Below are positions 5,926-56,628 of a stretch of DNA of 64,000 nucleotides, piece by piece. The first letter of the stretch is position 1, and every line of letters starts with the position of its first letter. The stretch is taken from positions 871-64,870 of the forward strand of contig JAHJCH010000171.1 of assembly GCA_018813065.1 (NCBI GenBank), read 5' to 3'. The notes under the pieces were generated by a model. That model was not told where the DNA came from. It saw nothing but the letters and a program-made list of their open reading frames with translations, and made no database searches. The DNA comes from Myxococcota bacterium (GTDB taxonomy: Bacteria; Myxococcota_A; Bradymonadia; UBA7976; UBA1532). The translations under genes were made by a program, and so were the position numbers.

Positions 5926-6696
5926 TCAATCATCCTTCTCATAGCGGACCAGGATCACTGTGATGTTATCGGTCCCACCGTTGTGATTCGCGCCATCAAT
6001 GAGGAGCTTGCAGGCTGCGTCCAGATCGGACTCTTTGTTTAAGATCGCCTCCATCTCCGGGTCGGTGAGCATCCCTGAGAGGCCATCAGAGCAGAGGAGA
6101 TAGATGTCTCCGTCCTGAGGCTTCTCCATCATCACGTCCACCTGCACAGTTTCTTTCATACCCAGGGCGCGGACGATGACGTTCTTATGTGGGAAGTTCT
6201 CGATCTCCTCCGGGGTGAGCTGGCGCATCTTGATGTAGTCATTGAGGAGGGAGTGGTCCTCGGTGATTTGAGTCAAGACCCCTTTGCGGAAACGATAGAC
6301 GCGGCTATCACCCACATGGCCGACATAGGCGGTGTCATTCATAAAGAAAACGGCCACGATCGTCGTGCCCATGCCCTTGAGCTTGCTGTCACGGGTGGAT
6401 GAGCTATGAATTTGACGATTGCTGAGCTTAATCCCCGTAATTAAACGGTTTTCTTCATAATGACGGCCCTTCTCCATTTTAAAAGGCCAGGTGATCTCGC
6501 CGTCCTCGGCGGTGGATCGGAAGAAGTCGCCGATCGTCTCCACAGACATCTGGCTGGCGACCTCACCTGAGGCGTGCCCGCCCATGCCATCGGCGACGAC
6601 GAAGAGGTTCTCCTCTCTAAAAATTTTGAGGCTGTCCTCATTATGAAGGCGCTTCATCCCCACATGAGTGTGGCCGGCAGAGGTGAGCTTCATCAC
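5926..6696 (-). CDS. PP2C-family Ser/Thr protein phosphatase
   Basis: FVVADGMGGHASGEVAS and YLLCSDGLS motifs. 256 aa, typical bacterial Stp-like size. Immediately upstream of the cyclase gene. Confidence 0.8.
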   Translation of the reverse strand: MMKLTSAGHTHVGMKRLHNEDSLKIFREENLFVVADGMGGHASGEVASQMSVETIGDFFRSTAEDGEITWPFKMEKGRHYEENRLITGIKLSNRQIHSSSTRDSKLKGMGTTIVAVFFMNDTAYVGHVGDSRVYRFRKGVLTQITEDHSLLNDYIKMRQLTPEEIENFPHKNVIVRALGMKETVQVDVMMEKPQDGDIYLLCSDGLSGMLTDPEMEAILNKESDLDAACKLLIDGANHNGGTDNITVILVRYEKDD

Positions 6697-11387: not shown

Positions 11388-13274
11388 ATGCACACCCACG
11401 ATCCCCTCAAAGAGAACCGCACTCCGCGCTATGGTGAGCTGAATCGGGCGGACTACGCCGCCTTGGGGCTTATGGTGGGCCTTGAGGTCCACCAGCAGCT
11501 CAAGACCACACGCAAGCTCTTTTGCCGTTGCCCTGCCGGTCACCGATTTAACAGTCACGACGCCGAGATACTCCGTCATATGCGCCCCACGCTCTCTGAG
11601 ATGGGCGAGTACGACGGCACCGCCTTGATGGAGTTTAAGACCCGCAAGGAGATCATCTATCGCATCCGACGCGAGACGGTCTGCACCTATGAGATGGACG
11701 ACGCGCCGCCCTTTGAGATCGATGATGACGCCCTCGATGTGGCCCTACAGATCTCCGCGCTCTTGGGGCTGCGCCTGGTAGACGAGCTGCACATCGCCCG
11801 CAAGCAGTACCTCGACGGCAGCATCCCGGCGGGCTTTCAGCGCACAGGCATCCTGGGCATCGACGGCGCGATCCCCTTCAAAGAGGGCCGCGTCGGCGTG
11901 CGCCAGCTCAGCATCGAGGAGGACTCCTGCCGCGAGGTCAGCGACGAGGGCCATACGCGGATCTATCGCGCGGATCGGCTGGGGACGCCGCTGATCGAGG
12001 TCGTCACCGAGCCGGATATGCGCACCCCCCAGGACGGCGCGGCGGTCGCCCAGCTGATCCGCGATCTGGTGCGGGCGACGGGGCGAGTGCGCACCCACGC
12101 TGGCGGCGCGCGCCAGGACGTCAACGTCAGCGTGCGGGGCGGGGTGCGCAATGAGATCAAGGGGGTGGACAGCTACAAGCTGATGCCTGAGCTGATCCAC
12201 AACGAGGCGCTGCGCCAAGCCAACCTGCTGCACGTCCGTTCGCTGCTCCAGGCGCGAGGCGCCATCGCCCCGACCGCGCCGGGGGTGGAGGTCACCGCGC
12301 AGCTGCGTCAGACGCCATGCGACTTCTTGCGCGAGGCCATCCACGGCGGCGCGGCGGTCCACGCCGTGGCCTTGCCAGGCTTCGAGGGGTTGCTCAGCCA
12401 CCCGATCCAGCCGGGCGTGACCTTCCTCAAGGAGATCGCCGACCGGGTGCGCGTCATCGCCTGCCTGGATCACCGCCCCAACCTGATCTGCTCAGAGGAC
12501 AGCGGCCCCAACATCAGCTCGGGCGAGTGGGGGCGGGTGCGCCGGGCGCTGGGGGCCAAGCGCGCTGAGCCGATTTTGCTCGTCTGGGGGCCGGAGCGCG
12601 ACTGCCGCACGGCCACGCAGGAGGTCCTCAACCGCGCGGCGGAGGCGCTCATCGGCGTGCCCTCGGAGACGCGACAGGCCTTCGCCGACGGCACCACGGG
12701 CTTTGAGCGCATCCTGCCAGGCCCCGAGCGGATGTACCCCGACACCGACTTGCCGCCGATCACGATCACGCCAGCGCGGATAGCCCGGCTCAAGGCGGGC
12801 CTGCCTGAGCCGCCCTGGGCGCGGCGCGAGCGGCTCTTGAGCGTCGGCGTGGGCCTCGATCTCGCCGAGCGGCTGATCCGCCACGCCGCCTATGACCTCT
12901 TCTGGGCGCTCTACGATGAGCGGGGCGAGGCGATCAGCGCCCAGGGCTTAGCCTCCTTGCTCCTGGATCGCCGCTGCGACAACCCCGCCGAGATCAGCGC
13001 CTTGAGCTGGTGGCGCGCCCAACTCGACGCGCTGCAAGCGGGGCGGATCATCCCCGAGGCGCTGTGGATGAAGGGCGAGGTGTCGCCCGAGGCGCTCGAC
13101 GAGGCCGCCGCGCGAGATCTCTTCGAGGCGCTGCTGGGCTCGGCGCCAGCGCCCCTCAACCTGGAGGCTGAGGAGGCCGCCTTGATGGGCGCCTTGATGA
13201 ACAGCCCGCTGCGTGGCCGCGCCCGTGGCCGCCTGATCCGACAATGGCTCCGCCAAGCCCTTGAGGCCCGATAA
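11388..13274 (+). CDS. gatE: archaeal-type glutamyl-tRNA(Gln) amidotransferase subunit E (GatE)-like
   Basis: GLEVHQQLKTTRKLFCRCP N-terminal signature and GARQDVNVSV...EIKGV cradle motif of the GatB/GatE family. It lacks the GatB CPVC zinc motif. The 628-aa length fits the GatE insertion architecture. Directly followed by a GatD-like gene. Confidence 0.6.
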   Translation: MHTHDPLKENRTPRYGELNRADYAALGLMVGLEVHQQLKTTRKLFCRCPAGHRFNSHDAEILRHMRPTLSEMGEYDGTALMEFKTRKEIIYRIRRETVCTYEMDDAPPFEIDDDALDVALQISALLGLRLVDELHIARKQYLDGSIPAGFQRTGILGIDGAIPFKEGRVGVRQLSIEEDSCREVSDEGHTRIYRADRLGTPLIEVVTEPDMRTPQDGAAVAQLIRDLVRATGRVRTHAGGARQDVNVSVRGGVRNEIKGVDSYKLMPELIHNEALRQANLLHVRSLLQARGAIAPTAPGVEVTAQLRQTPCDFLREAIHGGAAVHAVALPGFEGLLSHPIQPGVTFLKEIADRVRVIACLDHRPNLICSEDSGPNISSGEWGRVRRALGAKRAEPILLVWGPERDCRTATQEVLNRAAEALIGVPSETRQAFADGTTGFERILPGPERMYPDTDLPPITITPARIARLKAGLPEPPWARRERLLSVGVGLDLAERLIRHAAYDLFWALYDERGEAISAQGLASLLLDRRCDNPAEISALSWWRAQLDALQAGRIIPEALWMKGEVSPEALDEAAARDLFEALLGSAPAPLNLEAEEAALMGALMNSPLRGRARGRLIRQWLRQALEAR

Positions 13275-14656
13275 TGAGCGACGATTACAAAGGCTACCGA
13301 GGCGCCACCTTGGAGGCGCTGCGCCGCTTTGAGGCGCGGGTCTGGAGCGAGGTGCGGGTGGAGACGGAGGCGGGGGCCTTTGAGGGGCTGATCCTGCCGC
13401 GCAGCGAGACGGCCGACGCCGATCACCTCGTGCTCAAGCTGATCTCGGGCTACAACGTGGGGGTCCACCACGCCCGGATACTCAACATCGAGGTGAGGGG
13501 CCGCAAGGTCGCCGACTACAAGATCCCCGAGAAAGAGTTCCCCAAGGACGCGGGCAAGCCTCGGGTCAAGCTCTTTGGCACGGGTGGCACCATCGCCAGC
13601 CGGCTGGACTACCGCACGGGGGCGGTGATCCCCGCCTTCTCGCCGGGCGAGCTTTACGGCTCGGTCCCTGAGCTTGCGGACGTCTGCAACCTGGAGACAG
13701 AGAAGCTCTACGGGGTGTTCAGCGAGAACATGGGGCCAGCGGAGTGGCAGGGGACGGCGCGGGCCATCGCCCAAGCGATCAAGGAGGGCGTCGATGGCGT
13801 GGTCATTGGCCACGGCACAGACACGATGCACCACACCGCCGCCGTGCTCTCCTTTATGCTCCAAGACAGCCCCGTGCCCATCGTCATGGTGGGCAGCCAG
13901 CGCTCCAGCGACCGCCCCTCCAGCGACGCGGCGTTAAACCTGATCAACGCCGTGCGCGTGGCGGGGCACAGCGACATCGCCGAGATCATGGTCTGCATGT
14001 TTGGCCCCACCAGCGACCGCTACGATCTGCTCCATCGTGGCACGCGGGTGCGCAAGATGCACTCCAGCTACCGCTCGACCTTCAGGACCATTGGAGACAT
14101 CCCATTGGGGCGTGTAGACGCCGACGGCGTCCAGGCGTTCCGTCAGGACTATAAGCGGCGTCGATCAGACAGAGAGGTCAAGCTCAACACCGCCTTCGAT
14201 GATCGTGTCAGCATCGTTTACTACTACCCCAATATGAAGCCGGACATCATCGACAGCCTGATCGAGCAGGGATACAAGGGGATTGTTATCGCCGGGACGG
14301 GCTTAGGTCACGTCAACAAGCCGCTCTATCCGGCCTTGGCGCGGGCGCGAGCGGCGGGCGTGGCCGTCTACATGACGGTGCAGACGCTATGGGGCTATGT
14401 GCAGATGTATGTGTATGAGACGGGCCGTGAGCTGATGGACTTGGGCGTGGTGCCCTGCGCGAACATGTTGCCCGAGGTGGCCTACGTCAAGCTGGGCTGG
14501 GCGCTGGGACAATCTCAGGATCTGGAGGAGGTCAAGCGCATCATGTTAACCCCCATCGCCAGCGAGATCACCCCTCGTGAGCCACACGACGGCTACCTTG
14601 TCTTTCAAGGCGGCGTCCCTGAAGTCAATCGGTTTATCTCTCATCACTGGAAGTGA
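13274..14656 (+). CDS. gatD: glutamyl-tRNA(Gln) amidotransferase subunit D (GatD)-like: asparaginase-type domain with N-terminal extension
   Basis: L-asparaginase motifs KLFGTGGTIAS and VIGHGTDTM. An about 90-aa N-terminal extra domain, as in GatD. Start overlaps the gatE stop (ATGA). Confidence 0.65.
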   Translation: MSDDYKGYRGATLEALRRFEARVWSEVRVETEAGAFEGLILPRSETADADHLVLKLISGYNVGVHHARILNIEVRGRKVADYKIPEKEFPKDAGKPRVKLFGTGGTIASRLDYRTGAVIPAFSPGELYGSVPELADVCNLETEKLYGVFSENMGPAEWQGTARAIAQAIKEGVDGVVIGHGTDTMHHTAAVLSFMLQDSPVPIVMVGSQRSSDRPSSDAALNLINAVRVAGHSDIAEIMVCMFGPTSDRYDLLHRGTRVRKMHSSYRSTFRTIGDIPLGRVDADGVQAFRQDYKRRRSDREVKLNTAFDDRVSIVYYYPNMKPDIIDSLIEQGYKGIVIAGTGLGHVNKPLYPALARARAAGVAVYMTVQTLWGYVQMYVYETGRELMDLGVVPCANMLPEVAYVKLGWALGQSQDLEEVKRIMLTPIASEITPREPHDGYLVFQGGVPEVNRFISHHWK

Positions 14657-16158: not shown

Positions 16159-19100
16159 TCAGTCCTGGGTGACGTGGAGGCGGAAGGCGCCGTGATAGGG
16201 GCCTTCAACGCTGGGCTGCTCAACCAGATCGGCCATCAACGCGGGCAGCAGCTGGGCGGGGGTCAGCGCGGAGACGACGGTGTAGATCGTCAGCGGGAGG
16301 TGGACGCCCTGGGCGAGGATCTCCACCTCATCAAAGCCGTCGCGGATGTTGTAGCGGATCTGGCCCAGCTCGCTGATCTGGCTGGGCACCATGAAGTGCA
16401 GCGCGGGGACATCGCGCGTGGGGCCGTCATGGGTCTGGACATAGGGAAAGGCCGCCAGCGGCGTGACGTGCTCGCCACGGATGACCCGCGTCACCGCGCC
16501 TGAGCCGAGGTTGCCCAGCAGGCGCGCCGTGACCGGGCGCGGGTCATTGGGCTGCTCGGGCCTCAGCTGTATCCGCCAGACCTGTGGATGGGGGAAGTCG
16601 CTGTGGGCGCTGAAGCGATAGTCGCCCGCCGCGCCGCTGATCTCGCCGTCCTCGGGCAGATCCAGCGCGCCAGAGACGTGGCCGTCATAGATCACGCTGA
16701 TGTCGCCGTAGCAATCAAAGGCATCGCCGCCGTCATTGTTCCAGCCATTGCAGCCCTCAAAGTCATGTCGGATCTCCACGGGCTGAATAGGCGGCTCGTT
16801 GCCCTCGGGGATCAACACCGGCTCCTCGGGGAGCGTGATCGCCTCATTAAGGCTCGTCAACGCCAACGGCGCCCCGCCATCGACGAAGATGAAGTACTCG
16901 CCGGGCTCGATCTCGGCGCTGATCTCCTCACCGGCGACGTGTGTGCAGCCCAGCGTGGTGGCGCCGGACTCGCAGTCGGCGCGCACGGAGAGGATCGCGG
17001 GGTGATCGGTGCCCTCAGCGTCCAGCCAGACCCGCAGCGTGCCTGACTCTGCGGCCACATAGCGATAGACCCGCTCAGGCTGACCGCCGCCGCCACAGCT
17101 GGCCTCATATTGATCCGCGTCCCCCTCGGCGGTCTGGCCCTCGACCCTGTCGCTGCGCAGCGTCTCCACCGTCACGCCCTCGCGGCAGAGGCTCTCCTCA
17201 GTGAGATCACCCGGCGCCAAGCAGCCTGGATCGGCGGGATAGTCGGTCAGCCCGTCGCCGTCATCATCGATCCCGTTGACGCAGGCGGGCGTCTGGGGTG
17301 GATCAGCCTCGTCATCATCCTCGCCGCTGCCGCAGCCCAGATCATCGAGGTCGATGAGCCCATCCCAGTCATTGTCCACGCCGTCGGCGCAGCGAGGCAG
17401 GACAGGGCCGGGGTTGGTCTCATTGGTATCGGCGGCATAAGCGCAGCCCGGATCATCGGGGAAGTCCGTGCGACCGTCGCGATCATCATCGCGCTCATTG
17501 GCGCAGATGGGCCGCCCTGGCGCGTCGGCCTCATCGGGATCGGCGGCGTAGGTGCAGCCTGGATCAAACGGGAAGTCCACGCGCCCATCCTCGTCATTAT
17601 CCTCGCCGTCGCCGCAGGCGGGCAGGATCGCGGGGTCCACCTCGCTGGCGTGGCCCGCCGCGAAGCAGCCTGGATCCCAGGGGAAGTCGATCCGGCCATC
17701 GCCGTCATTGTCCTCGCCGTCGCTGCACGCGGTCACGGCCTCGCCCTCGCCGCGATCACCCATGCCCGCGCAGCCTGGATCAAACGGGAAATCGATCAGC
17801 CCATCGCGATCATCATCGAGGCGGTTGCTGCACTCGGGGGTTGGGCGGCGATCGATCTCGTCATCATCGGCGGCGGCGAAGCAGCCTGGATCCCAAGGGA
17901 AATCGATCAGGCCGTCGGCGTCATCATCGAGGCCGTTGAGGCAGGCGGGCGGCGCCTCTGGATCAGCTTCGTCATCATCGCCCAGCGTCTCGCAGCCCGG
18001 ATCGGCGGGGTAGTCAATGCGCCCATCCTCGTCATCATCGCGACCGTTGCTGCACGCCACCTCGACGCCCGTCTCATCGCCCTCATCCTCATCCTCTCGT
18101 GAGGCGCAGCCCGGATCATCGCCGTCGATGGCGCCATCGCGGTCATTATCGAGGCCATCATCGCAGCCTGGATCGAGGCGCTCGACCTCCACCGTGAGCT
18201 TGAAGGGGCCGCCGGTGCCCACGCTGGTATCGACGAAGATCCAGTAATCGCCCACCGCCGCCTGCTCCAGCGTAAAGCGACCGTTGGTGCTGCCCGCCCG
18301 AGAGCCATCATCGCAGCGCAGCTCGCTTTGAGCGTCATCGCAGGCGCGGCGGATATAGAGCGTGGTGGGGGTCGTCGTCTCTGGATGAGCGGTGTTAAAG
18401 GTCAGCCGGGCGTTATAGGGGTTGTGATAGTAATAAATCACCTCAGGCTTAGAACGCCCACCGCAGCTGCCCTCATGAGCATCGGTCGCGCCCTGAGTCA
18501 CCTTCGTCTCCCCATAAACCGCCTCATCATCGAAGAAATACTCGTGAAAGGCCACGCCATCACCGCAGGCGTCCAGCTCGGAGGTAGAAGCGGCGCTGAG
18601 GCAGCCAGGATCGAGCGGATAATCCACGCGCCCGTCGCCGTCATCATCCTCATCATTGGCGCAGGCGGGCGTGGGGCTGGGTGTGCGCTCATCGCGATCG
18701 CGTGGGGACTCACAGCCAGGATCGGTGGGATAATCGACGCGCCCATCCTCATCATCATCACGGCGGTTGAGGCACTCCGCCAAGGGCACCTCGGTGACGG
18801 TCAGCTCGACGGGCCCGCCGATCCCGGCCACGCCATCGATGAAGATGTAATAGTCATCTGGGGCCAGATCAGCCACCTGCAAAACGTGGCCGGGCACGAG
18901 GGGCGCTTGATCCTCACGCTGGCAGGCCACCTCGGCGCGGGTGGAGAGGCAATGGACCCGGCGGAGGTAGAGCGTGGTGGGCACATCTGTCTCGCCGATC
19001 GTGCTGATCTCAAGGCGCTCAACGGCGCGGGTGAGGCGATAGAGCACCGCCACCTCGGGGCTGCCTCGCCCGCCGCAGCTGCCATTGGTATTAAAGACCC

Positions 19101-20010
19101 CTCGGGCGGTATCGAGCCGGATCGGCTCACCGTCAAAGACGCGCGGGGGATCATAGACATCGCCGCAGGCGCCGCGCTCGCTGAAGTCCGAGGCCGCCGC
19201 GCAGCCGTCATCATCGGGATAATCGATCTTGCCATCGCGGTCATTATCGAGGCCGTCAAAACACTCAGGCTTAACGCCCTTGTCCAGCTCCTCGCGATCC
19301 CCTGCCCCTGCGCAGCCGGGATCATCGGGATAATCGATCAGCCCATCGCCGTCATCATCGAGGCCGTTGATGCACTCTGGCGGCCTGGGTGGGTCCTCCT
19401 CGCTGGTGTCCCCTGCGGCGCTGCACCCTGGATCGAGGGGGAAGTCCACGACGCCGTCCTCATCATTATCGATGGCGTCGAGGCAAGCGGGCGGGTTGTC
19501 CTCATCCTCATCGCCCTCCTCGGCGTCGGCCACCGAGCTGCACCCTGGATCGATCTCATCGATGGCGCCGTCGCGGTCATTATCGAGGCCGTCATTACAC
19601 TGCGGCGTGACAGGGGGGTTGAACTCATCCTCATCGACGCTCGACGCGCAGCCGGGATCATCGGGGAAGTCGGTGAGATCATCGAAATCGTTATCGATCC
19701 CGTCATTACACTGAGGCGGCTCGCCCTCGTCCGTGTCCTCGCCATCAACGCAGCCTGGATCTTGGAGATCGATGAGGCCGTCGCCGTCATTATCCCGCAG
19801 ATCGCGACAAGCGGGCGCGGGCGCCTCGCTGCCAGCCTCGCCCGCTTGACCGGCGTCGCCGCCACCGCCTGTGAGGCCTACACCGCCACCGCCACCACCG
19901 CCGCCGACGAGGACATCCGCCTCGGCGTCGGGGGCTGAGCCCTCGTCGCTGTCACAGCCCAAGAAGAACAGGGCCGAGAGGGCGATGACCCCAAACCAAC
20001 GCAGCTCCAT
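16159..20010 (-). CDS. giant secreted lipoprotein (1283 aa) with about 17 MopE-type C-x-DG-x-DND-x-DG-x-D...DPGC metal/Ca-binding repeats and three PPC-like beta-sandwich domains
   Basis: Lipobox FFLGCDSD. Gly run GGGGGGGGVGLTGGGGDAG. Repeated 35-40-aa units such as PQCNDGIDNDFDDLTDFPDDPGCASS. Three PPC-like inserts (EISTIGETDVPTTLYLRR...DDYYIFIDGVAGIGGPVELTV, and two more). An about 250-aa unique C-terminal domain. Confidence 0.75.
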   Translation of the reverse strand: MELRWFGVIALSALFFLGCDSDEGSAPDAEADVLVGGGGGGGGVGLTGGGGDAGQAGEAGSEAPAPACRDLRDNDGDGLIDLQDPGCVDGEDTDEGEPPQCNDGIDNDFDDLTDFPDDPGCASSVDEDEFNPPVTPQCNDGLDNDRDGAIDEIDPGCSSVADAEEGDEDEDNPPACLDAIDNDEDGVVDFPLDPGCSAAGDTSEEDPPRPPECINGLDDDGDGLIDYPDDPGCAGAGDREELDKGVKPECFDGLDNDRDGKIDYPDDDGCAAASDFSERGACGDVYDPPRVFDGEPIRLDTARGVFNTNGSCGGRGSPEVAVLYRLTRAVERLEISTIGETDVPTTLYLRRVHCLSTRAEVACQREDQAPLVPGHVLQVADLAPDDYYIFIDGVAGIGGPVELTVTEVPLAECLNRRDDDEDGRVDYPTDPGCESPRDRDERTPSPTPACANDEDDDGDGRVDYPLDPGCLSAASTSELDACGDGVAFHEYFFDDEAVYGETKVTQGATDAHEGSCGGRSKPEVIYYYHNPYNARLTFNTAHPETTTPTTLYIRRACDDAQSELRCDDGSRAGSTNGRFTLEQAAVGDYWIFVDTSVGTGGPFKLTVEVERLDPGCDDGLDNDRDGAIDGDDPGCASREDEDEGDETGVEVACSNGRDDDEDGRIDYPADPGCETLGDDDEADPEAPPACLNGLDDDADGLIDFPWDPGCFAAADDDEIDRRPTPECSNRLDDDRDGLIDFPFDPGCAGMGDRGEGEAVTACSDGEDNDGDGRIDFPWDPGCFAAGHASEVDPAILPACGDGEDNDEDGRVDFPFDPGCTYAADPDEADAPGRPICANERDDDRDGRTDFPDDPGCAYAADTNETNPGPVLPRCADGVDNDWDGLIDLDDLGCGSGEDDDEADPPQTPACVNGIDDDGDGLTDYPADPGCLAPGDLTEESLCREGVTVETLRSDRVEGQTAEGDADQYEASCGGGGQPERVYRYVAAESGTLRVWLDAEGTDHPAILSVRADCESGATTLGCTHVAGEEISAEIEPGEYFIFVDGGAPLALTSLNEAITLPEEPVLIPEGNEPPIQPVEIRHDFEGCNGWNNDGGDAFDCYGDISVIYDGHVSGALDLPEDGEISGAAGDYRFSAHSDFPHPQVWRIQLRPEQPNDPRPVTARLLGNLGSGAVTRVIRGEHVTPLAAFPYVQTHDGPTRDVPALHFMVPSQISELGQIRYNIRDGFDEVEILAQGVHLPLTIYTVVSALTPAQLLPALMADLVEQPSVEGPYHGAFRLHVTQD

Positions 20011-20105: not shown

Positions 20106-21302
20106 ATGTACTGGTTGACCCTCAGCGGGCTTGGCCTCTTGGCCGCCCTGACCCTCATCAACCTCCTCAAGACCTTGAAGGGGGATGATGTCTCCGCCGC
20201 CTGGCGGCTCGACAAGGACAGCCCCCTCGATCCGCTGCCCGAGCCACCGCCGAGCCTCTCCATTGTGATCCCTGCGCGGGACGAAGCGGCCAACATCGAC
20301 GCCTGCCTCACGGCGGCCTTCGCCGTGGACTGGCCGGGCGCCTTGGAGGTCATCGTCTTAGACGATCGCTCCAGCGACGGCACCGGCGAGATCTTGGCGC
20401 GCTGGGCTGCGCGTGAGCCGCGCTTAAAGGTATTGGAGGGCATCGAGCCGCCGCCGGGCTGGATGGGCAAGCCGCACGCCCTACATCGCGCCCAAAGGGC
20501 CGCCTCTGGAGAGTGGCTCCTCTTCCTTGACGCCGACGTCGTCATTGATCCACTTGGGCCGCGCCGCCTGATAGGCCGCGCTTTGGCGCAAGGGGCGGAG
20601 ATGGCCTCGGGCCTAGGCGCCTTAGAAGTGCAGAGCTTCTGGGAGCGTGTGATCCAGACGCGGATGGGGGCGATCATCGCCTTGGGCAACCCGCTGCAAG
20701 AGGTCAACGATCCTGACAAGCCCCAGGCGCTCGCCAACGGCCAATGCCTGCTCTTTACGCGGACCGCCTATGATCGGCTTGGGGGCCACGAGGCCATCTA
20801 CAACAGCGTGCTTGACGACGTGGACTTCGCCAAGCGGGCCAAAGCCGAGGGGGTGTGCTTCCGGCTCTACTTTGCCCCGGCGGTCTTCTCCTGTCGGATG
20901 TACACGGGCCTGGCGGAGATCTGGTCGGGCTGGACGAAGAACCTCTTTCCGGCCCTGGGCTATCGCCTGAGCGTGACGGCGTGGGTAACAACATTTCTCT
21001 TTATTTTCACATTGTTACCCTTTGTGCTTGTGCTCAAAAACGGCATCATCTGGGTCATGGGCGGGGCGATCAACGCGCCGCACCTGATCTTGGAGTTGCT
21101 CACCGCCGGGGCGCTCCTGCTGATGGACGCGGTGGGGCATCACCGCAACGGCTATCGTTGGGGGCTCTTTTGGACCTTCCCATTAGGGATGCTCTTTGTG
21201 TTGTTGATCTTTTTAAACAGCGCATGGCGCATCACTTCGGGGCGCGGGGCGGTCTGGAAGGGTCGCGTGGTGGAGGCAGGGCGCAAGCCCAAGGTGGATT
21301 AG
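20106..21302 (+). CDS. GT2 family glycosyltransferase with C-terminal transmembrane region
   Basis: SIVIPARDEAANI (GT-A N-terminus), DxD-like LDDRSSDG, then four or more hydrophobic helices. Divergent from the giant lipoprotein gene. Confidence 0.7.
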   Translation: MYWLTLSGLGLLAALTLINLLKTLKGDDVSAAWRLDKDSPLDPLPEPPPSLSIVIPARDEAANIDACLTAAFAVDWPGALEVIVLDDRSSDGTGEILARWAAREPRLKVLEGIEPPPGWMGKPHALHRAQRAASGEWLLFLDADVVIDPLGPRRLIGRALAQGAEMASGLGALEVQSFWERVIQTRMGAIIALGNPLQEVNDPDKPQALANGQCLLFTRTAYDRLGGHEAIYNSVLDDVDFAKRAKAEGVCFRLYFAPAVFSCRMYTGLAEIWSGWTKNLFPALGYRLSVTAWVTTFLFIFTLLPFVLVLKNGIIWVMGGAINAPHLILELLTAGALLLMDAVGHHRNGYRWGLFWTFPLGMLFVLLIFLNSAWRITSGRGAVWKGRVVEAGRKPKVD

Positions 21303-21382
21303 GCGTTTTTTAGCTTGGATTAAGTTTGATTAATCATAAAAAAACTTAAAAGAATATGCGAATTGTGTTTGTTCCTGGGGCC

Positions 21383-23170
21383 TTATTTCTTAGTGTCAAC
21401 TTCTCCCTTACCACTGGGCTTAGTGAATGCCTCTGGGCCTCGAATCATGATATAAATCACGTCTCCCATGGCCAGGTACTTGATCGGTCCGGGCTCGGCG
21501 TTTAGTGGAAGAATCTCGCCAGAGATTTTTCCCTTCACAGCGAGTTGATGAACGATGTTATCTCCTGCTTCGTTGTTTAGAATCACTGTTAGTGTGTATC
21601 CATAGGGTTTGTCTTTGGGTTCATCACCAGGCGAAGTGAGCTTCACCAACTCAAAGCGCTGACCACGACGAAGAATAAGCGGCTTGTTCTTGTCGCCAAA
21701 TTCCATCTTGGATTCGATAGCGATTGGGGGAGTGAGAAGCTCGGGCGTTTTGCTGGGGTCGGTCTGCGTGGCCTTGCCCAAAACGAAGTTCAGCACCTTA
21801 ACGAAATTCTCGTGCGCGTAGCGATCCACCTGCACAGAGCGCACGACCCAGGTCGGTGGGCTCTGCGTGGTAATCACCATCTGCGACTCGGCGATTGCCT
21901 TCCTTGTCTTCAGACCTCGTACGCCAATATCCCGCGCCTTGTCCACGAAAGCATTGCTCAGGCGATAGAGTTCAAAGCCGACGGGAACTTCGATGTCACC
22001 CTTCCTTTGCCAGACCATGGAATTCTCGTCGACTTGGTGGTAAGAGCTACTACTTTCATAGTTACCGCTCGCACCAGCCTTGAAAACCCCGAAAACGTTG
22101 GCATTGGCACTGCCGCCAGTTTTCATCGATTCACTGCGTTGCACATCGGATTTTTTTTTCATATCGTCCAAAAAGTTGTTAATTTTACTGGGTTGAAGGC
22201 CATTTTTGGTCAAGTTCTGCGTATCCATCCGGCCCCAAACGTCTTCGTCTTCAAAAAAAATCGTTTCGCCCTTGAAGGCTTCCTGTGTCAGAGCATCGAG
22301 TTGCCTGATGATAGGGTGTGACATGTTGGGGTCGCCCATGATCCGCATTTCTCCCCGAACGTGATTACGTGCGCGGTCGATGATTTCATCAAGCTGCTTG
22401 CGTGTCACGTAGGGCGGTTTTGCTTCTTTAATGTTTCCGGCGATTACTGGACCCTGAACTTCCATTTCATTATGAATTGCCTGGAGAAACTGCGTCTGAA
22501 GTGTAAGGGTCGACTCCCATTCGATGCTTTCTCCGAATACGCGCTGAATGATGCGGAATCGAAGACCACCTTCATCCTGGATCCACTTTATGAACTGCCC
22601 TTTAAGATCCTCGGAAACCAAAGCGTCGATTTCAAGCGTTCTTCCAGAGGGAAAGCGCTCTTCGACAGGTTTAAAACGAATCTCATCTTTAAGGTTTGGC
22701 GTGATGTCTTGGACCTGAACTGATAGGATGTCCGCTGGATTTACGTTAGCTTCGGTGATATTGGGTTTTATCCCGTGGAACCGAAGCTGCTCAGCAATTT
22801 TACTGCGGGTTCCTTGAGGATTTCGAACTAGAGTAAGAACTAGCCTAATTTTACCTGATCCATTTTTATCAAAGGTTGTCTTGACCTCACGGATATCAAC
22901 TTTTCCATTATTATCGAGTGCGAAGTGATACGGTGCGATATAGACCACATTGTCTGGATTGCCGGGCATTTCATAGACCTGGATTTCCAGTCCGTCGATA
23001 CCGACGGTTGCAAGCCATGAACCGACAACACGTGTTTGTGCGGCGAAGTCCTCAATAGGAATTTCATCCTTGGGGGCTCCTTCCTGTGCGCGAAGCGCCG
23101 AACCATCCTGAAAAATGGGGAATGCAAGCGCAAAAGCGCTCAAGTTTTGCCAGAATTGGCTCAGTTTCAT
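21383..23170 (-). CDS. hypothetical secreted protein, no recognisable domain, in low-GC island
   Basis: 595-aa uninterrupted ORF in DNA of about 48-50% GC, against about 70% in flanking DNA. N-terminal signal-peptide-like MKLSQFWQNLSAFALAFPIFQDGSALRA. No known catalytic motif found by eye. Confidence 0.55.
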   Translation of the reverse strand: MKLSQFWQNLSAFALAFPIFQDGSALRAQEGAPKDEIPIEDFAAQTRVVGSWLATVGIDGLEIQVYEMPGNPDNVVYIAPYHFALDNNGKVDIREVKTTFDKNGSGKIRLVLTLVRNPQGTRSKIAEQLRFHGIKPNITEANVNPADILSVQVQDITPNLKDEIRFKPVEERFPSGRTLEIDALVSEDLKGQFIKWIQDEGGLRFRIIQRVFGESIEWESTLTLQTQFLQAIHNEMEVQGPVIAGNIKEAKPPYVTRKQLDEIIDRARNHVRGEMRIMGDPNMSHPIIRQLDALTQEAFKGETIFFEDEDVWGRMDTQNLTKNGLQPSKINNFLDDMKKKSDVQRSESMKTGGSANANVFGVFKAGASGNYESSSSYHQVDENSMVWQRKGDIEVPVGFELYRLSNAFVDKARDIGVRGLKTRKAIAESQMVITTQSPPTWVVRSVQVDRYAHENFVKVLNFVLGKATQTDPSKTPELLTPPIAIESKMEFGDKNKPLILRRGQRFELVKLTSPGDEPKDKPYGYTLTVILNNEAGDNIVHQLAVKGKISGEILPLNAEPGPIKYLAMGDVIYIMIRGPEAFTKPSGKGEVDTKK

Positions 23171-23638
23171 TGATTAGAGTCCCCTTTCGATTTGAATGTG
23201 CCTTTTAAAGGACCTTAAAAATGGCCCTTCGGTATAAGGAGGATAAGGTAACTATAAAGTCCGCCTTAATCAGTCGATTTTTCAACCCTATCCCCGTCAA
23301 AACTTTTTCTGACGAATCGAAGATAGACTTCCCTACTCCCCACTTCAAGCAAAACTCTCGGCCGTGCAGTACTTTGCCATCAACAAACACAATGGATGCG
23401 TCTGCGCAATCGCGGACACAATCATCAACAGTCCGGTCACTTTTTGTAAGCCCTTGAAACTAAAGGTTTCTCATTTCGAGTGAACACGATGGCCATTCTA
23501 ATGATTTCAAGGGGTTACGCGAAGAGGCTGCCCTTGACCCAAAAAAGTGACCGGAGTATTGAACCAGAGCAGTTGGCCAGCCGGAGCAACTGGCCTCCAT
23601 GTGCTCTTTTGGGGCGCCATCTATCCCCGCTGTGGGTG

Positions 23639-24061
23639 CTACTCAGCGCAGGTGTACTCGAAGCGCTGGCTGAGGGCGGGGGACTCACCATCGCTCAACA
23701 GGAAGTCATAACGATCAATCTGTTTGACACGGCCCTCATCGTCATAAGCGATCTCGGTCTTCCTCACGGGTGAGTCTTGATTGAGGAGGTCGAGATCGTA
23801 CTCCTCAAGGATCTCCAACTTGCGGTTCTGATCGTAGCGCATCTGGTAGATCATCGTCGGCTCGTCCGTCCCGTGGGTGGCAAGGTTGTAGCGCTCGCTG
23901 CGACACGCGCCAAAGGCGGCCCCCGCCGAGGACTCGGCGAGCAGCACCTTGAGGCGCGTGACCTCCAGGCGCAGATCGTTGATCTCATTGCTGGACGCCG
24001 TGCCTTGGCCGACGCAGCCCGCCGCGAGCATCAATGGGAGGAGCAGTGTAAGTGATCGCAT
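23639..24061 (-). CDS. small lipoprotein, unknown function
   Basis: Signal peptide plus lipobox LMLAAGC. 140 aa. Lies between the island ORF and the kinase genes. Confidence 0.45.
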   Translation of the reverse strand: MRSLTLLLPLMLAAGCVGQGTASSNEINDLRLEVTRLKVLLAESSAGAAFGACRSERYNLATHGTDEPTMIYQMRYDQNRKLEILEEYDLDLLNQDSPVRKTEIAYDDEGRVKQIDRYDFLLSDGESPALSQRFEYTCAE

Positions 24062-24171
24062 CGGCCCTCACTTGTGGTGTGTTTACGCTGAAAGCCCGCG
24101 GATTATCCGAGGTGCGTCTATCTAACACATGGCGAGGTCTCTCGCTATTTTTTTTAACGGGTTCGCTCGGA

Positions 24172-25173
24172 TCAACTCGCGCCGTATAAATCCGGGCACA
24201 GCTCACGCATATACGTCTCCAGCATCATGATTGTTGGACCATAACCTTTGCGATAAATGTGATACTCAAGGGCCATCGCCAGCTCATCGGTGCTCTCATA
24301 GCGATTTTTAGGGTCTTTATCGAGCATACGAGAGAGCAGCTTGCGCAGACGACGAGAGACAAACTTCGGGAGGGCATCCCAGTCTACCCAGCCCTGAGAT
24401 GCAGCCACAAGCGGGCTTCTAAACCACGGTTTGCGCGCACGTTGCATCGCGAGTAGCTCGAAAAGAACTAATCCAAGCGAGTATTGATCTGATCTATGAT
24501 CTAATACCTGCCCTTTTGCTTGCTCAGGTGACATATAGGCGACTTTGCCCCAGGGCCAACCATTCTCAGATTTAATAAGCATACGATTTGCTGCGGTCGC
24601 GATACCAAAATCACCCAGTTTAGGTAGGCCTTCTGTTGTGATAAGCGTATTATTCGGGCATACATCACGATGTACAATCTTTAGTGATTCACCTTGCGCG
24701 TTGCGCCTCGAATGTGCATGAGCAAGCCCTCTCGCGATTCGACTTACAATAAAGACCGCGAGTTCTTCTCCTAAATGTTTATCTTTGTGTCTTTGGATAA
24801 ATTCAGCGAGAGATAGCCCATGTACATATTCCATCACAATGTAATAGCCGCCCTGGTATCGATTGAGCTGGTATATCTGGATGATATTTTCATGGACAAG
24901 GTTTGCGACTAATTTTGCTTCTGTAACAAATAGAGATACAAAGACTTGGTCATCAGATAGCTTTGGTAAGAGCTGCTTAATGGCAACACGCTTCTCGAAG
25001 CCATTTGCGCCGCAGTGTATTGCTTCGCATACCGTGCCCATACCACCTTGCGCTATTTTTCTGACAATACGATAAGCGCTTTTTTCATTTATCTCACTTT
25101 TAAATTGATGAGATATGTCTTTTAGCTCCGGTGGATTCTGTTCATTTGGGCTCATTGATGACTTATTCTTCAC
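24172..25173 (-). CDS. Ser/Thr protein kinase (Hanks type) with atypical catalytic loop HRDVCPNN
   Basis: Gly loop GGMGTV, VAIK, HRDVCPNN (canonical is HRDLKPxN), DFG, SPE motifs. 333 aa. Reduced GC (about 50%). 11-bp overlap with the upstream kinase gene. Confidence 0.7.
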   Translation of the reverse strand: MKNKSSMSPNEQNPPELKDISHQFKSEINEKSAYRIVRKIAQGGMGTVCEAIHCGANGFEKRVAIKQLLPKLSDDQVFVSLFVTEAKLVANLVHENIIQIYQLNRYQGGYYIVMEYVHGLSLAEFIQRHKDKHLGEELAVFIVSRIARGLAHAHSRRNAQGESLKIVHRDVCPNNTLITTEGLPKLGDFGIATAANRMLIKSENGWPWGKVAYMSPEQAKGQVLDHRSDQYSLGLVLFELLAMQRARKPWFRSPLVAASQGWVDWDALPKFVSRRLRKLLSRMLDKDPKNRYESTDELAMALEYHIYRKGYGPTIMMLETYMRELCPDLYGAS

Positions 25174-26368
25174 TCGATGTGGTCATTTTTACTTTTACAG
25201 GCACTTCTTGTTTGTTTAACTCGTCTTTTTGGGCCATTTTGTAGTTGAAGAATAAAACAATGATTGCAATCAACGCGATCAGAATGACCGCGATGATCTT
25301 AATTCTTAAAAGACGCGATTTCTTCTTGTTCTTTTGGATCAAGAACATAATTGACTCTTGATCAAGGGGCGCGTCGGTCTTCTCTCCTCGCCCAAAGCGC
25401 GCGCCGTCCTCTTGAACCGTGTCGCTCAGCTCATCCACAGGCGGCGGCGTCGGTGGCTTGGGGCGCCGGCTCAGCGCGGCGTTGACCTCGGCGATGGCCT
25501 GGGAGTCTTGGATGATCCGATCGATGGCCTCAAGCATCTCCTTGGCGGTCGGGTAGCGATCATCGGGGTTCACCGCGCAGGCCTTCTTGATCACCTTGCC
25601 CAGCTTGGTCTTGCTCAGCGCCCGGTCGATGGGGATCGGCCTCTGCTTGGCGTCGTAGACGACGATGGGGTTGGGATCGGCGAAGACGCGCTCGCGGATC
25701 AGCGACTCAAGCAGGACGACGCCGATGGCGTAGACGTCGCTCTCGGGGCGAGGCTCGATGAAGTCCTTAAACTGCTCCAGGCCCATGTAGGCAGGGGTGC
25801 CCAAGGCCACGCCGCCCTTGGTGATGTTGTCATAGCCCGTGTCGCGCAGGGCTTCTTGTACCCCGGCGATGCCAAAGTCGAAGACCTTGGCGTTCCGCCG
25901 CACCCCGCTGCCCGAGATCATGATGTTTTGAGGCTTGAGGTCACGGTGGACGATCCCATGGCCGTGGGCCTCGGCGACGGCCTCCAGCACCTGGGAGATC
26001 AAGCGCAGGACCTCCTCGACGCTGAGCGCCTCTTGGCCGAGGAGGATCGACAGCTCTTGGCCCTCGATCAGCTCCAAGGCCATCCAAGGGCCCTCATCAT
26101 AGCCCGCGTCCAGCAGCCCCACGACGTAGGAGCTGCGCAGCTTGCCCAAGAGCGCCATCTCACGCAGGAAGCGCTGCTCTTGCTCCGCCTCGAAGCCCTC
26201 ATAGTCCACATCCGGTAGCGATAGCCGCTTGATCGCCACGATCTGGTTGGTGGATCGCTGCCTGGCCCGATAGACCGCGCCAAACCCGCCTCGGCCCAGC
26301 TCATCCAAGAGCTCATAGCGGTCATTGAGGAGGGCGCGGAGGTTTTCAAGGCTTTCGGGTGCGCTCAT
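25163..26368 (-). CDS. Ser/Thr protein kinase with C-terminal transmembrane anchor
   Basis: GRGGFGAVY, AIK, HRDLKPQNIMI, DFG, and a C-terminal TM helix IIAVILIALIAIIVLFF. Start taken at MSAPESLENL; the ORF track extends to 26455. The last about 70 codons are AT-rich. Confidence 0.7.
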   Translation of the reverse strand: MSAPESLENLRALLNDRYELLDELGRGGFGAVYRARQRSTNQIVAIKRLSLPDVDYEGFEAEQEQRFLREMALLGKLRSSYVVGLLDAGYDEGPWMALELIEGQELSILLGQEALSVEEVLRLISQVLEAVAEAHGHGIVHRDLKPQNIMISGSGVRRNAKVFDFGIAGVQEALRDTGYDNITKGGVALGTPAYMGLEQFKDFIEPRPESDVYAIGVVLLESLIRERVFADPNPIVVYDAKQRPIPIDRALSKTKLGKVIKKACAVNPDDRYPTAKEMLEAIDRIIQDSQAIAEVNAALSRRPKPPTPPPVDELSDTVQEDGARFGRGEKTDAPLDQESIMFLIQKNKKKSRLLRIKIIAVILIALIAIIVLFFNYKMAQKDELNKQEVPVKVKMTTSSEE

Positions 26369-55114: not shown

Positions 55115-55333
55115 TTGTTGATGATGTCACGCTTCGTGGCGCTTGAGGCTCTGGCGCGGGTACACGAGGTGGTTGAGATGCTCAGGGTCTTTATCGCCGC
55201 GCTCGTCGGGGGCGCGGTGGGCTACGGTTATTATCGCGTGGTGGGTTGCCGCACCGGCGCTTGCCCAATCACCGCCAATCCTTACACCGCGATCGCCTAT
55301 GGTGTGCTCATGGGGCTCCTTTTCAGCCGATAA
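55115..55333 (+). CDS. small membrane protein with GCxxGxCP motif
   Basis: 72 aa. One or two TM segments. VVGCRTGACPITANP. Weak. Confidence 0.3.
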   Translation: MLMMSRFVALEALARVHEVVEMLRVFIAALVGGAVGYGYYRVVGCRTGACPITANPYTAIAYGVLMGLLFSR

Positions 55334-55434
55334 GAAAAAAACGATATCGAGACTCATATCTCGATTTAAAACTTGCGGACACGCTCAAACAAGGTTATCT
55401 GCAACAAACAAATCCCATTTTGAGGAGGGGATCA

Positions 55435-56628
55435 ATGAACAAGCTGGCCTCATATCTCGCGTTCTTCATGGTGGCGGGGCTCGCCAGCCACGCCAGCGCG
55501 CTTGACTTATATGAAAAAGATGATAAGACCTTAAAAATCATCGGACTTGTCCAGCCTCGCATGGACATGAACCTTGATTCCACACCCGTCGCTGGCTCTG
55601 GCGATGAGAAGGGACCATTGACCACAGACTTTTATATTCGTCGTTTTCGTTTAATTACTGAAGCAAACATTCATAAAAACATTCAAGTTCGCTTTAATCT
55701 GCACTCTAATGACATTGGTTTACCAGGCAAATATAATCCTGCGATGTTCGTTGGCGATGCTTACATCGAATACAAGGCATCGAAGAACCTCTTGATCAAC
55801 TTTGGTATCCTCAAGCTGCCCTTCCTTCGCCACATGATGCAGGGCGCGGCGGGCCTGCACGGGATGGACTTCCACGGCTTTATCCTTAAGGAGCCTGCGG
55901 GCGTGAAGGGCGCGATGACCAACCTGCCCCACCGCGATAACGGCATCATGTTCCGTGGCCTCCTCGCCAACAAGAAGATCGACTATCGCATCGCCATCGT
56001 CGATGGCTGGGAGTACAACCCGGGCGTCGCCGCTGGCGCCGACGGCTCGGGCGGCGCGCCGGCGCATAACGAAGAGGACATGCCCCGCATGGTCGGGCGC
56101 ATCGCCTACAACCTCTTCGACGCGACCCCCGAGTACTACCTCGCTGGCACCTACCTGGGGAAGAAGAAGGTCGTCTCCTTCGGCGTGAGCTTTGATCTCC
56201 AGCCTGGGGTGGGCGGTGATGATGGCAAGAAGATGTACAGCGCCTTCGGCGGCGATCTCCTCGTCGATCTCCCCATGGGCAAGAATGGCCTCACCCTGAC
56301 CGGCAACTTCGGTAAGTTCGGCGAAGGCGGCCCGATGCCTGGTGATAAGGGCGGTATGGGGATGTGGGCGGATCTGGGCTATCGCATTGGTAAGATCGAG
56401 CCCCTCTTTGCCTTCGAACAGTACATCCCTGATAACGAAGAGGAGAAGAATCACAAGGGTGAGCACCAGGCGATGCTCTTTGGCTTAAACTATTGGGCCA
56501 AGGGCCACGCGTTTAATATCAAGGCCCAGTTCGGTATGGTTAAGGATGGCGTGGGTACGGGTGATGGTGAGGAGTTTGAAGGGAAGTTTAAGAAGCACCT
56601 GTTCATTCAAAGCCAAGTAAGGTTCTAA
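55435..56628 (+). CDS. outer-membrane beta-barrel protein (porin-like)
   Basis: Signal peptide MNKLASYLAFFMVAGLASHASA. Alternating amphipathic strands. C-terminal aromatic (…QSQVRF). GAGGAGGGG RBS. Followed by a rho-independent terminator. Confidence 0.5.
   Translation: MNKLASYLAFFMVAGLASHASALDLYEKDDKTLKIIGLVQPRMDMNLDSTPVAGSGDEKGPLTTDFYIRRFRLITEANIHKNIQVRFNLHSNDIGLPGKYNPAMFVGDAYIEYKASKNLLINFGILKLPFLRHMMQGAAGLHGMDFHGFILKEPAGVKGAMTNLPHRDNGIMFRGLLANKKIDYRIAIVDGWEYNPGVAAGADGSGGAPAHNEEDMPRMVGRIAYNLFDATPEYYLAGTYLGKKKVVSFGVSFDLQPGVGGDDGKKMYSAFGGDLLVDLPMGKNGLTLTGNFGKFGEGGPMPGDKGGMGMWADLGYRIGKIEPLFAFEQYIPDNEEEKNHKGEHQAMLFGLNYWAKGHAFNIKAQFGMVKDGVGTGDGEEFEGKFKKHLFIQSQVRF

Follow-up and report, generated by a model that had tools for sequence, protein, structure and literature searches.

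A low-GC tract in a Myxococcota chromosome, probably a mosaic of separately acquired genes

The question raised by this locus is whether an abrupt fall in GC content marks one recently acquired island or something more composite. The DNA under study, referred to below as the window, is a stretch of 64,000 nucleotides from a Myxococcota bacterium (GenBank assembly GCA_018813065.1, contig JAHJCH010000171.1, positions 871 to 64,870 of the forward strand). About 4 kb of it is conspicuously GC-poor, encodes a 595-residue protein (orf595), a lipoprotein of 140 residues and a small Ser/Thr kinase (kin333), and ends inside a second kinase gene (kin430). A reading made from the letters alone, without database searches (the sequence-only reading), had taken these genes for recently acquired cargo. 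The foreign origin that it proposed is upheld for orf595 and kin333 by codon usage and by phyletic affinity, whereas its single recent island conflicts with a lipoprotein gene of native composition, with a boundary placed in the tail of kin430 and with a related contig, L005, which carries homologues of both kinase genes. The tract is probably a mosaic of at least two separate horizontal acquisitions in a Myxococcota chromosome of about 65-70% GC, and not one mobile island, so that "one recent island" is revised to two acquisitions of different age and source.

The features on which this argument rests are listed here by window position, with GC as a fraction and with GC content at third codon positions abbreviated as GC3.

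21303-21382, no strand: AT-rich spacer of 80 bp (GC 0.325) between the convergent stop codons of a GT2 gene and orf595; left edge of the tract
21383-23170, minus strand: orf595, 595 residues, predicted Sec-type secreted protein; GC 0.49, GC3 0.53
23171-23638, no strand: non-coding region of 468 bp upstream of orf595; GC 0.47
23639-24061, minus strand: gene for the 140-residue lipoprotein, lying between two low-GC patches; GC 0.60, GC3 0.79
24172-25173, minus strand: kin333, stand-alone Hanks-type kinase; GC 0.46, GC3 0.42; the NCBI start at 25155 gives 327 residues
25163-26368, minus strand: kin430, membrane-anchored Hanks kinase, 401 residues from the annotated start or 430 from a TTG at 26455
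25163-25366, minus strand: low-GC 3' tail of kin430, comprising the juxtamembrane segment, the transmembrane helix and the C-terminus; right edge of the tract

Extent and composition of the low-GC tract

Sliding-window GC fell from 0.63-0.69 in the flanks to 0.40-0.55 across approximately 21.2-25.4 kb, and maximum-likelihood binary segmentation set the limits of the tract at change points 21298 and 25366. The first precedes the last base of the GT2 stop codon (21302) by 4 nt, in agreement with the sharp drop first noticed from 21303 onward, and the second lies inside kin430 at about codon 334 of 401, matching the recovery of GC that had been located within that kinase gene, with the tract ending at 25330. 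The open reading frame (ORF) coordinates given at that stage were likewise correct. The host is indeed GC-rich, while the figure of 70% was too high, the whole window having a GC of 0.648, the majority of genes 0.64-0.72 and the background about 65-70%.

At the codon level, the reference was formed by the 41 other ORFs of the window (GC3 0.835 ± 0.054, minimum 0.668), and deviation was also expressed as the Karlin codon-usage distance B. This check, which had been recommended from the outset, gave the following values:

orf595: GC3 0.529 (z = -5.7); B 0.617 (z = +5.9)
kin333: GC3 0.424 (z = -7.7); B 0.831 (z = +9.5)
140-residue lipoprotein gene: GC3 0.794 (z = -0.8); B 0.242 (z = -0.2)
kin430, whole gene: GC3 0.791 (z = -0.8); B 0.270 (z = +0.2)
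GT2 gene: GC3 0.825 (z = -0.2); B 0.285 (z = +0.5)

Only orf595 and kin333 were singled out by composition and codon usage, both far outside the host range. All composition values of the lipoprotein gene (B = 0.24) were at most 1.2 standard deviations from those of host genes, and by composition this gene is native to the host, contrary to the initial impression that GC stays low all the way through the 333-residue kinase. Two low-GC patches are thus separated by native DNA. Patch 1 (about 21298-23640) comprises orf595 and its 468-bp upstream spacer, and patch 2 (about 24100-25366) comprises kin333 and the final 70-85 codons of kin430. Within orf595, codons 401-480 (window 21730-21970) had a host-like GC3 of 0.70-0.80; local amelioration, gene conversion or the amino-acid make-up of the segment might each account for this. 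Outside the tract, two further genes were mildly GC-poor, one for a PP2C phosphatase (5926-6696, minus strand; GC 0.54, GC3 0.72) and the other a porin-like ORF of 460 residues (55246-56628, plus strand; GC 0.54), whose GC3 of 0.67 is the lowest in the window outside the tract.

Abrupt compositional steps in a metagenome-assembled genome could also arise if the tract were an assembly or binning chimera with a lower-GC organism. This is hardly credible here, given that the same locus was recovered at 99-100% identity in GCA_018824465.1 and in the Logan assemblies SRR2544004 and SRR2544012, with identical junctions in the window, GCA_018824465.1 and Logan SRR2544004, three assemblies made independently of one another, that an intact kin430 spans the right edge and retains homology to its orthologue across that edge, and that the native lipoprotein gene stands between the patches.

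Origins of the two patches

The kin333 product consists of a kinase domain alone (Pkinase, PF00069; E = 6e-39, 134.5 bits against a gathering cutoff of 31.7). The motifs seen were the glycine loop GGMGTV, VAIK, HRD, N175, DFG and SPE. Its catalytic loop, HRDVCPNN (24649-24672, minus strand; residues 168-175), carries Cys at residue 172 where the canonical HRDxKxxN has Lys, and in this one sense the kinase proved as atypical as it had been called. We defined by alignment a PVC-type (Planctomycetota, Verrucomicrobiota and Chlamydiota) family of small kinases, as yet unnamed, by a full-length identity of at least 53% together with two signatures, the HRDVCPxN Cys, kept in at least 90% of the family, and a C-terminal LEYxIYxKGYGPTVVTLExYLR. 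By this definition kin333 is a member, with 53-78% identity to 23 members, both signatures and a position inside the clade. The best 120 homologues had 308-402 residues and 53-78% identity; 12 of them bore organism names, 11 from Lentisphaerae, Kiritimatiellaeota or Verrucomicrobiota and one from Rhodothermales, and none of the 120 was named as Myxococcota. At 55-66% identity the names were almost all of the first three groups. A neighbour-joining tree rooted on kin430 nested kin333 among Lentisphaerae-labelled sequences, beside that of Lentisphaerae RIFOXYB12, and in PVC contigs the small-kinase gene was compositionally native (GC 0.62-0.63 in DNA of 0.64-0.67). Taken together, these relationships identify kin333, as far as homology can tell, as a Lentisphaerae-like member of the PVC small-kinase family that is foreign to its Myxococcota host.

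Two other assignments were considered and rejected. As an anti-phage defence kinase (PD-T4-6, MADS Mad6 or BREX PglW), kin333 scored far under the NCBIfam cutoffs (for example 124 against 460 for MAD6), and the PADLOC models of PD-T4-6 scored kin333 and kin430 equally, as a generic Hanks-kinase match does, with no partner genes. An ORF of 637 residues downstream of a Lentisphaerae kinase in another contig (L008), tried as a relative of orf595, was unrelated. In a further PVC contig (L006) the small-kinase gene has an overlap of 4 nt with that of a 736-residue kinase, and the family may work in partnership with larger kinases.

The closest homologue of kin333 (78% identity) was found in L005, a 3.2-kb contig with a GC of about 0.60-0.62, where a homologue of kin430 directly follows the kin333-like gene (L005 871-3260). 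This downstream ORF had been tried as a homologue of orf595 before it was recognised as that of kin430; the contig does not cover the orf595 side of the locus. The two kin430 proteins share about 78% identity in the kinase domain, 67% across a match of 356 residues and 65% when the entire alignment is counted. Since kin333 and kin430 are similarly diverged between the window and L005, the acquisition of kin333 would predate that split, which suggests that it is older than the separation of two lineages about 22-35% diverged and hence not recent. The L005 copy of kin333 is also GC-poor relative to its surroundings (0.53 versus 0.62 for the contig, lowest in the 5' half), with a GC3 of 0.61 versus 0.42 in the window.

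The right-hand boundary was equally informative. The kin430 gene, separated from kin333 by an operon-like gap of about 8 nt, has a native GC3 of 0.86 in codons 1-315, which drops to 0.54 in codons 316-401. When its low-GC tail was aligned to the corresponding tail in L005, which is of high GC, the Smith-Waterman score was 79, against 24 ± 4.6 for shuffled sequences, and 0 of 2000 shuffles reached it; both tails contain the motifs SIxFL, LR, AL-AI and PVKV, and that of the window is recoded toward Lys, Ile, Asn and Phe codons. This significant similarity argues that the two tails are orthologous. Lying inside the tail of an orthologous gene, the right boundary is not an illegitimate insertion junction and seems instead to mark where a homologous exchange with an allele of lower GC came to an end.

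The history of patch 1 appears different. orf595 (database entry hypothetical protein KKB55_18245 [Myxococcota bacterium]) is an intact ORF with a plausible ribosome-binding site, AAGGGGA. Only two homologues were found among 5.8 billion clusters, both full-length, with identities of 39% (E = 2e-121) and 35%, and the recovery of such full-length homologues indicates that orf595 is a real gene. When 1.84 billion cluster representatives were searched with a profile, the family grew to 51 proteins, of which 15 had E <= 1e-10; a large protein search started from the alignment of all 51 added nothing to the three close homologues already known. Most members have 500-640 residues, and the 20 that were looked up were nearly all single-sequence metagenome clusters with uninformative names. 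The absence of a recognisable motif, remarked on from the sequence, extended to Pfam, NCBIfam, PHROGs, PADLOC and PDB sequences, in none of which orf595 had a match.

The genomic contexts of the relatives were varied. One (P0124, contig L010) lies among integrase, resolvase, AbiEi/AbiEii, Tn3 transposase and rve genes; another (P0147, L017) lies beside AbiEii/AbiEi, SSB and ParB genes and a fragment of a type IV secretion system coupling-protein gene; a third (P0128, L011) is followed by a weak paralogue; and the close homologues P0002 and P0003 adjoin HtrA-type and M48 peptidase genes. In two of six contexts, both involving distant family genes in mobile regions (L010 11921-14488 and L017 11752-13406), an AbiEi/AbiEii toxin-antitoxin pair was beside or near the gene. 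By GC, the family gene was native to its contig in L001 (0.48 versus 0.49) and L010 (0.44 versus 0.46), and atypical in L017 (0.49 versus 0.58) and L011 (0.60 versus 0.54). No conserved neighbour emerged across the contexts examined, and an orf595-type gene therefore appears to act alone. On this evidence orf595 is, in our assessment, a foreign gene of a rare, modular family of secreted proteins borne on mobile DNA, and its donor probably had a GC of about 45-50%.

With the affinities of both genes in view, the history of the tract as a whole can be weighed. Transfer of orf595, the lipoprotein gene and kin333 as one recent block of about 4 kb from one low-GC donor would explain a contiguous tract with sharp outer edges at 21298 and 25366 and all four genes on the same strand. 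We consider it improbable, in view of the native composition of the lipoprotein gene, the right edge inside an orthologous gene tail, the different phyletic affinities of orf595 and kin333, and the presence of kin333 (78% identity) in the L005 lineage while orf595 homologues elsewhere are never beside this kinase. Nor does the tract carry the marks of an island. As the sequence-only reading had stated, there was no integrase, transposase or recombinase (none by Pfam among the ORFs of 16-29 kb, and no further candidates in the ORF list) and there were no flanking direct repeats, the only repeats in the window being of 14-31 nt and at chance level; tRNA genes were absent from the 64 kb.

Equally doubtful is the opposite view, that the genes are ancestral and owe their low GC to local mutation bias or to selection, for example through low expression or nucleoid-protein binding. 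Such in-place or allelic change would be in keeping with a kin430 tail that is AT-rich though orthologous to a high-GC tail, with the L005 copy of kin333 lying below its contig (0.53 versus 0.62) and with the mildly GC-poor genes at 5926-6696 and 55246-56628. It is difficult to reconcile with the placement of kin333 within Lentisphaerae-labelled sequences of 55-66% identity, with no Myxococcota name in the top 120, with the extremely sparse, patchy and mobile-element-associated distribution of the orf595 family, and with codon-usage distances of +6 and +9.5 standard deviations, far beyond the native spread.

The mosaic that we favour would have formed in at least two steps. In patch 2, a PVC donor would have given kin333 to an ancestor common to the window and L005 lineages, after which uneven amelioration and local rearrangement would have followed, kin333 staying next to kin430; homologous recombination with a lower-GC allele would have carried low GC into the kin430 tail. 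In patch 1, a single-gene insertion from a lineage of about 45-50% GC would have brought in orf595 together with the AT-rich DNA that precedes it. Several observations weigh against this history. The kinase order is reversed, kin430 preceding kin333 in the window and a kin333-like gene preceding a kin430-like gene in L005, so that shared ancestry requires a rearrangement. The nearest kin333 homologues lie in contigs of 0.62-0.66 GC, so that a PVC donor of low GC is an assumption. Neither patch is marked by a mobility gene, a tRNA gene or a repeat that would reveal how it was inserted. Finally, no genome near enough for a comparison of this locus emerged among GTDB representatives in a scan anchored on the adjacent aminotransferase (matches of at most 38% identity), nor among JGI metagenomes in a scan anchored on kin430 (best 42%).

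Architecture and possible role of the orf595 protein

Alignment of the 51 family members and a structural model divided the protein into the following parts:

23087-23170, minus strand: predicted signal peptide, about residues 1-28 (...GSALRA/QEG), read from the sequence
21791-23038, minus strand: family core, about residues 45-450/460, with a beta-rich N-terminal domain, a central sheet with helices, the TRxQ motif and P396
22055-22132, minus strand: Gly/Ser/Ala-rich loop, residues 347-372, with alternating residues, modelled as disordered and flanked by helices
21431-21778, minus strand: C-terminal beta-sandwich module, about residues 465-580, occupying a swappable slot in the family

The signal-peptide-like N-terminus described at first sight is likewise read here as a predicted Sec-type leader, and most of the 51 members have an N-terminal hydrophobic leader. 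An AlphaFold model built with only three sequences was unusable, with a predicted local distance difference test score (pLDDT) of 40; repeated with the 51-sequence alignment, it reached a pLDDT of 79.3 and a predicted TM-score of 0.64, and showed the two domains of the core as listed above, the disordered loop 347-372 and the C-terminal sandwich. Structure prediction had been suggested as a way of exposing a common housekeeping fold, and Foldseek matched none in the PDB. When the PDB was searched with profiles of the full family or of the C-terminal module alone, only collar-domain or chance matches came up. The sole significant structural match was to a protein of Medusavirus stheno T3 in BFVD (A0A7S7YF07; Foldseek E = 5.5e-10, probability 1.00, 442 aligned columns), an uncharacterised and functionally uninformative protein of 417 residues with 13% identity and TM-scores of 0.26 and 0.36. 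On the strength of this modelled similarity, the fold of the family may also exist in nucleocytoplasmic large DNA viruses.

Motifs of the core in the alignment are VTRxQ, LSxYxFxxxDLxPDxI, ASASFxGFGGSxS and KGWxFxxxGxxxVPKSLxVY. Strongly conserved polar residues were limited to T256, R257 and Q259, the TRxQ motif being almost invariant, and the other well-conserved columns held F, L, G, P and A; one frequent Asp (position 324, 84% of members) is Gly in orf595. The predominance of hydrophobic residues, Gly and Pro in the conserved columns argues against a conventional enzyme. The loop, of about 25 residues and low pLDDT, has the family consensus FSFSGSASASFxGFGGSASA and carries an excess of G, S, A, T and N, with small residues at 0.43 against 0.33 in the whole proteins, and its hydrophobic moment at beta periodicity averaged the 92nd percentile within each protein. 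The C-terminal slot is filled in different ways. In 9-10 of the 51 members, all distant ones, a Collar domain (PF07484) matching T4 gp12 and PHROG tail-fibre families is present, and in the four of these that were studied more closely it spans about residues 450-520. An FGE-sulfatase domain, which is C-type-lectin-like, occupies residues 450-684 of one member, and one has a weak ricin-lectin match, while the beta-sandwich of orf595 and its nearer relatives had no database match.

A secreted enzyme of novel fold, for example a hydrolase or lyase with polymers of prey or matrix as substrate and with C-terminal modules that bind carbohydrate or another ligand, would share several of these traits, since secreted glycoside hydrolases and proteases too typically join a Sec signal to a core of catalytic size and a binding module that varies. 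The peptidase genes, HtrA-type or M48, beside two close homologues and the nearly invariant T-R-x-Q motif could be read the same way. We nevertheless regard an enzyme as unlikely, since there is no conserved set of acid, base and nucleophile, the frequent Asp is replaced by Gly in orf595 itself, and no Pfam or NCBIfam enzyme family was found in the core of any of the 51 members; even at E <= 10, Pfam gave no recurrent core domain among them.

The earlier suggestion of a phage-related protein found no support. A tail-fibre or receptor-binding protein derived from a phage, or a prophage remnant, might be proposed from the collar domains at the ends of distant members and from the giant-virus protein as the only significant structural match. 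The chance of this seems very small, given that orf595 has neither a collar domain nor a PHROG match, that tblastn found nothing in 50,697 phage records or 72,556 plasmids and IMG/VR held no relative with a close or a distant alignment, that no phage genes lie nearby, and that the Sec signal peptide is normally absent from structural virion proteins.

For orf595 the role of a secreted toxin, effector or adhesin, the first two of which the sequence-only reading had mentioned, is a plausible candidate. We tentatively prefer a non-catalytic core with membrane insertion of the Gly/Ser loop. The protein would be exported by the Sec pathway, its C-terminal module would bind a surface ligand on another cell, and the core would then act without catalysis, the Gly/Ser-rich amphipathic loop inserting into the membrane or the protein serving in adhesion. 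Such a bacteriocin-like or pore-forming-toxin-like factor of antagonism or predation would fit a predatory lineage. An adhesin or a structural envelope protein is a competing interpretation of the same features. A broader proposal, that orf595 and its roughly 50 relatives form an unrecognised family of Sec-exported, mobile-element-borne antagonism proteins with a new fold, a swappable receptor-binding module (a novel beta-sandwich, a collar or an FGE/C-type-lectin-like domain) and a hairpin that breaches the membrane, and hence a new class of bacteriocin or pore-forming toxin gained by horizontal transfer, is more speculative still. Several results speak against a membrane-inserting role. Foldseek gave no PDB match, pore-forming toxins included, and Pfam none to MACPF, aerolysin or ETX-type domains; the loop is short, at about 25 residues; there is no conserved immunity-like neighbour; and a Sec signal peptide alone carries a protein only to the periplasm of a diderm cell.

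Neighbouring features and relation to known systems

The lipoprotein reported from the sequence was confirmed, the 140-residue product passing the lipoprotein criterion in that MRSLTLLLPLMLAAGC holds the lipobox LAAG/C (pattern [LVI][ASTVI][GAS]C); it had no family match in Pfam, NCBIfam, PHROG or PADLOC. The AT-rich non-coding stretch before orf595 is present as described, at a measured length of 468 bp instead of 430 bp. It contains one further feature:

23425-23562, minus strand: imperfect hairpin of 138 nt with 21-nt inverted arms (19 of 21 positions complementary) 96 nt apart, single copy in the window

The hairpin, with a folding energy of -49.7 kcal/mol (z = -3.2), could be a remnant resembling a miniature inverted-repeat transposable element, a terminator or insulator, or a regulatory RNA. 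Rfam gave no match in the tract, hairpin included, and a promoter and terminator scan gave matches no better than chance.

Two other genes of the window deserve mention. A lipoprotein-like ORF of 1283 residues (16159-20010, minus strand; LFFLGC), with no real Pfam match, contains at least 10 strict and about 20 looser copies of a 21-residue Cys-bounded acidic motif, CxxGxDDDxDGxxDFPxDPGC, which resembles calcium-binding DxDxDG repeats and is interspersed with three larger repeated modules. An ORF of 460 residues (13274-14656, plus strand) has asparaginase domains together with the N-terminal domain of GatD (PF18195, E = 2e-13), a layout usually tied to archaeal GatD and unexpected in a Myxococcota genome.

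As a genomic feature, the tract is a case of ordinary horizontal transfer without recognisable mobility machinery. It shares with classical genomic islands the host-deviant composition and codon usage of orf595 and kin333, and differs from them in having no integrase, tRNA target or direct repeats. Horizontally acquired gene islets that lack mobility genes are closer, being alike in GC3 and codon deviation, sharp edges, AT-rich flanking non-coding DNA and foreign phyletic affinity. From islets and islands alike the tract is set apart by two patches that appear to differ in origin and age and by one edge inside an orthologous host gene.

Among Hanks-type Ser/Thr kinases (PknB/Stk1, PF00069), kin333 shares the glycine loop, the VAIK Lys, the HRD Asp, the catalytic Asn, DFG and SPE. 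Unlike PknB and Stk1, it is a kinase domain only, of about 320 residues, without a transmembrane segment or a PASTA or sensor domain, and it is further distinguished by the HRDVCPxN Cys, by the C-terminal GYGPTVVTLExYLR segment of its family and by PVC relatives in place of Myxococcota ones. Its presence beside a membrane kinase in a Myxococcota genome points to cross-phylum transfer of a small-kinase family that is apparently typical of Lentisphaerota and other PVC bacteria.

The C-terminal slot of the orf595 family invites comparison with T4 gp12 and other tail collar proteins (PF07484), whose collar domain fills it from about residue 450 in the 9-10 distant relatives and thereby suggests that the slot holds a surface-binding module, presumably also in orf595. 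orf595 differs from these proteins in the unrelated beta-sandwich in its slot, in a core without a phage homologue and in its Sec signal peptide. Secreted beta-pore-forming toxins and bacteriocins (aerolysin/ETX-MTX2, MACPF/CDC and the Bacteroidales BSAP proteins) are non-catalytic, Sec-exported products of single genes, with a modular C-terminal binding domain and a Gly/Ser-rich alternating loop, and are borne on mobile regions. The likeness of orf595 to them is one of architecture only, with no sequence or Foldseek similarity. The orf595 family combines rarity, predicted secretion, a confidently modelled core unmatched in the PDB and a C-terminal slot that accepts phage-type receptor-binding domains. 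orf595 falls outside every described family and could prove new once characterised; if the toxin or adhesin reading is true, it would add a new family of interbacterial weapons, one small enough for experimental study.

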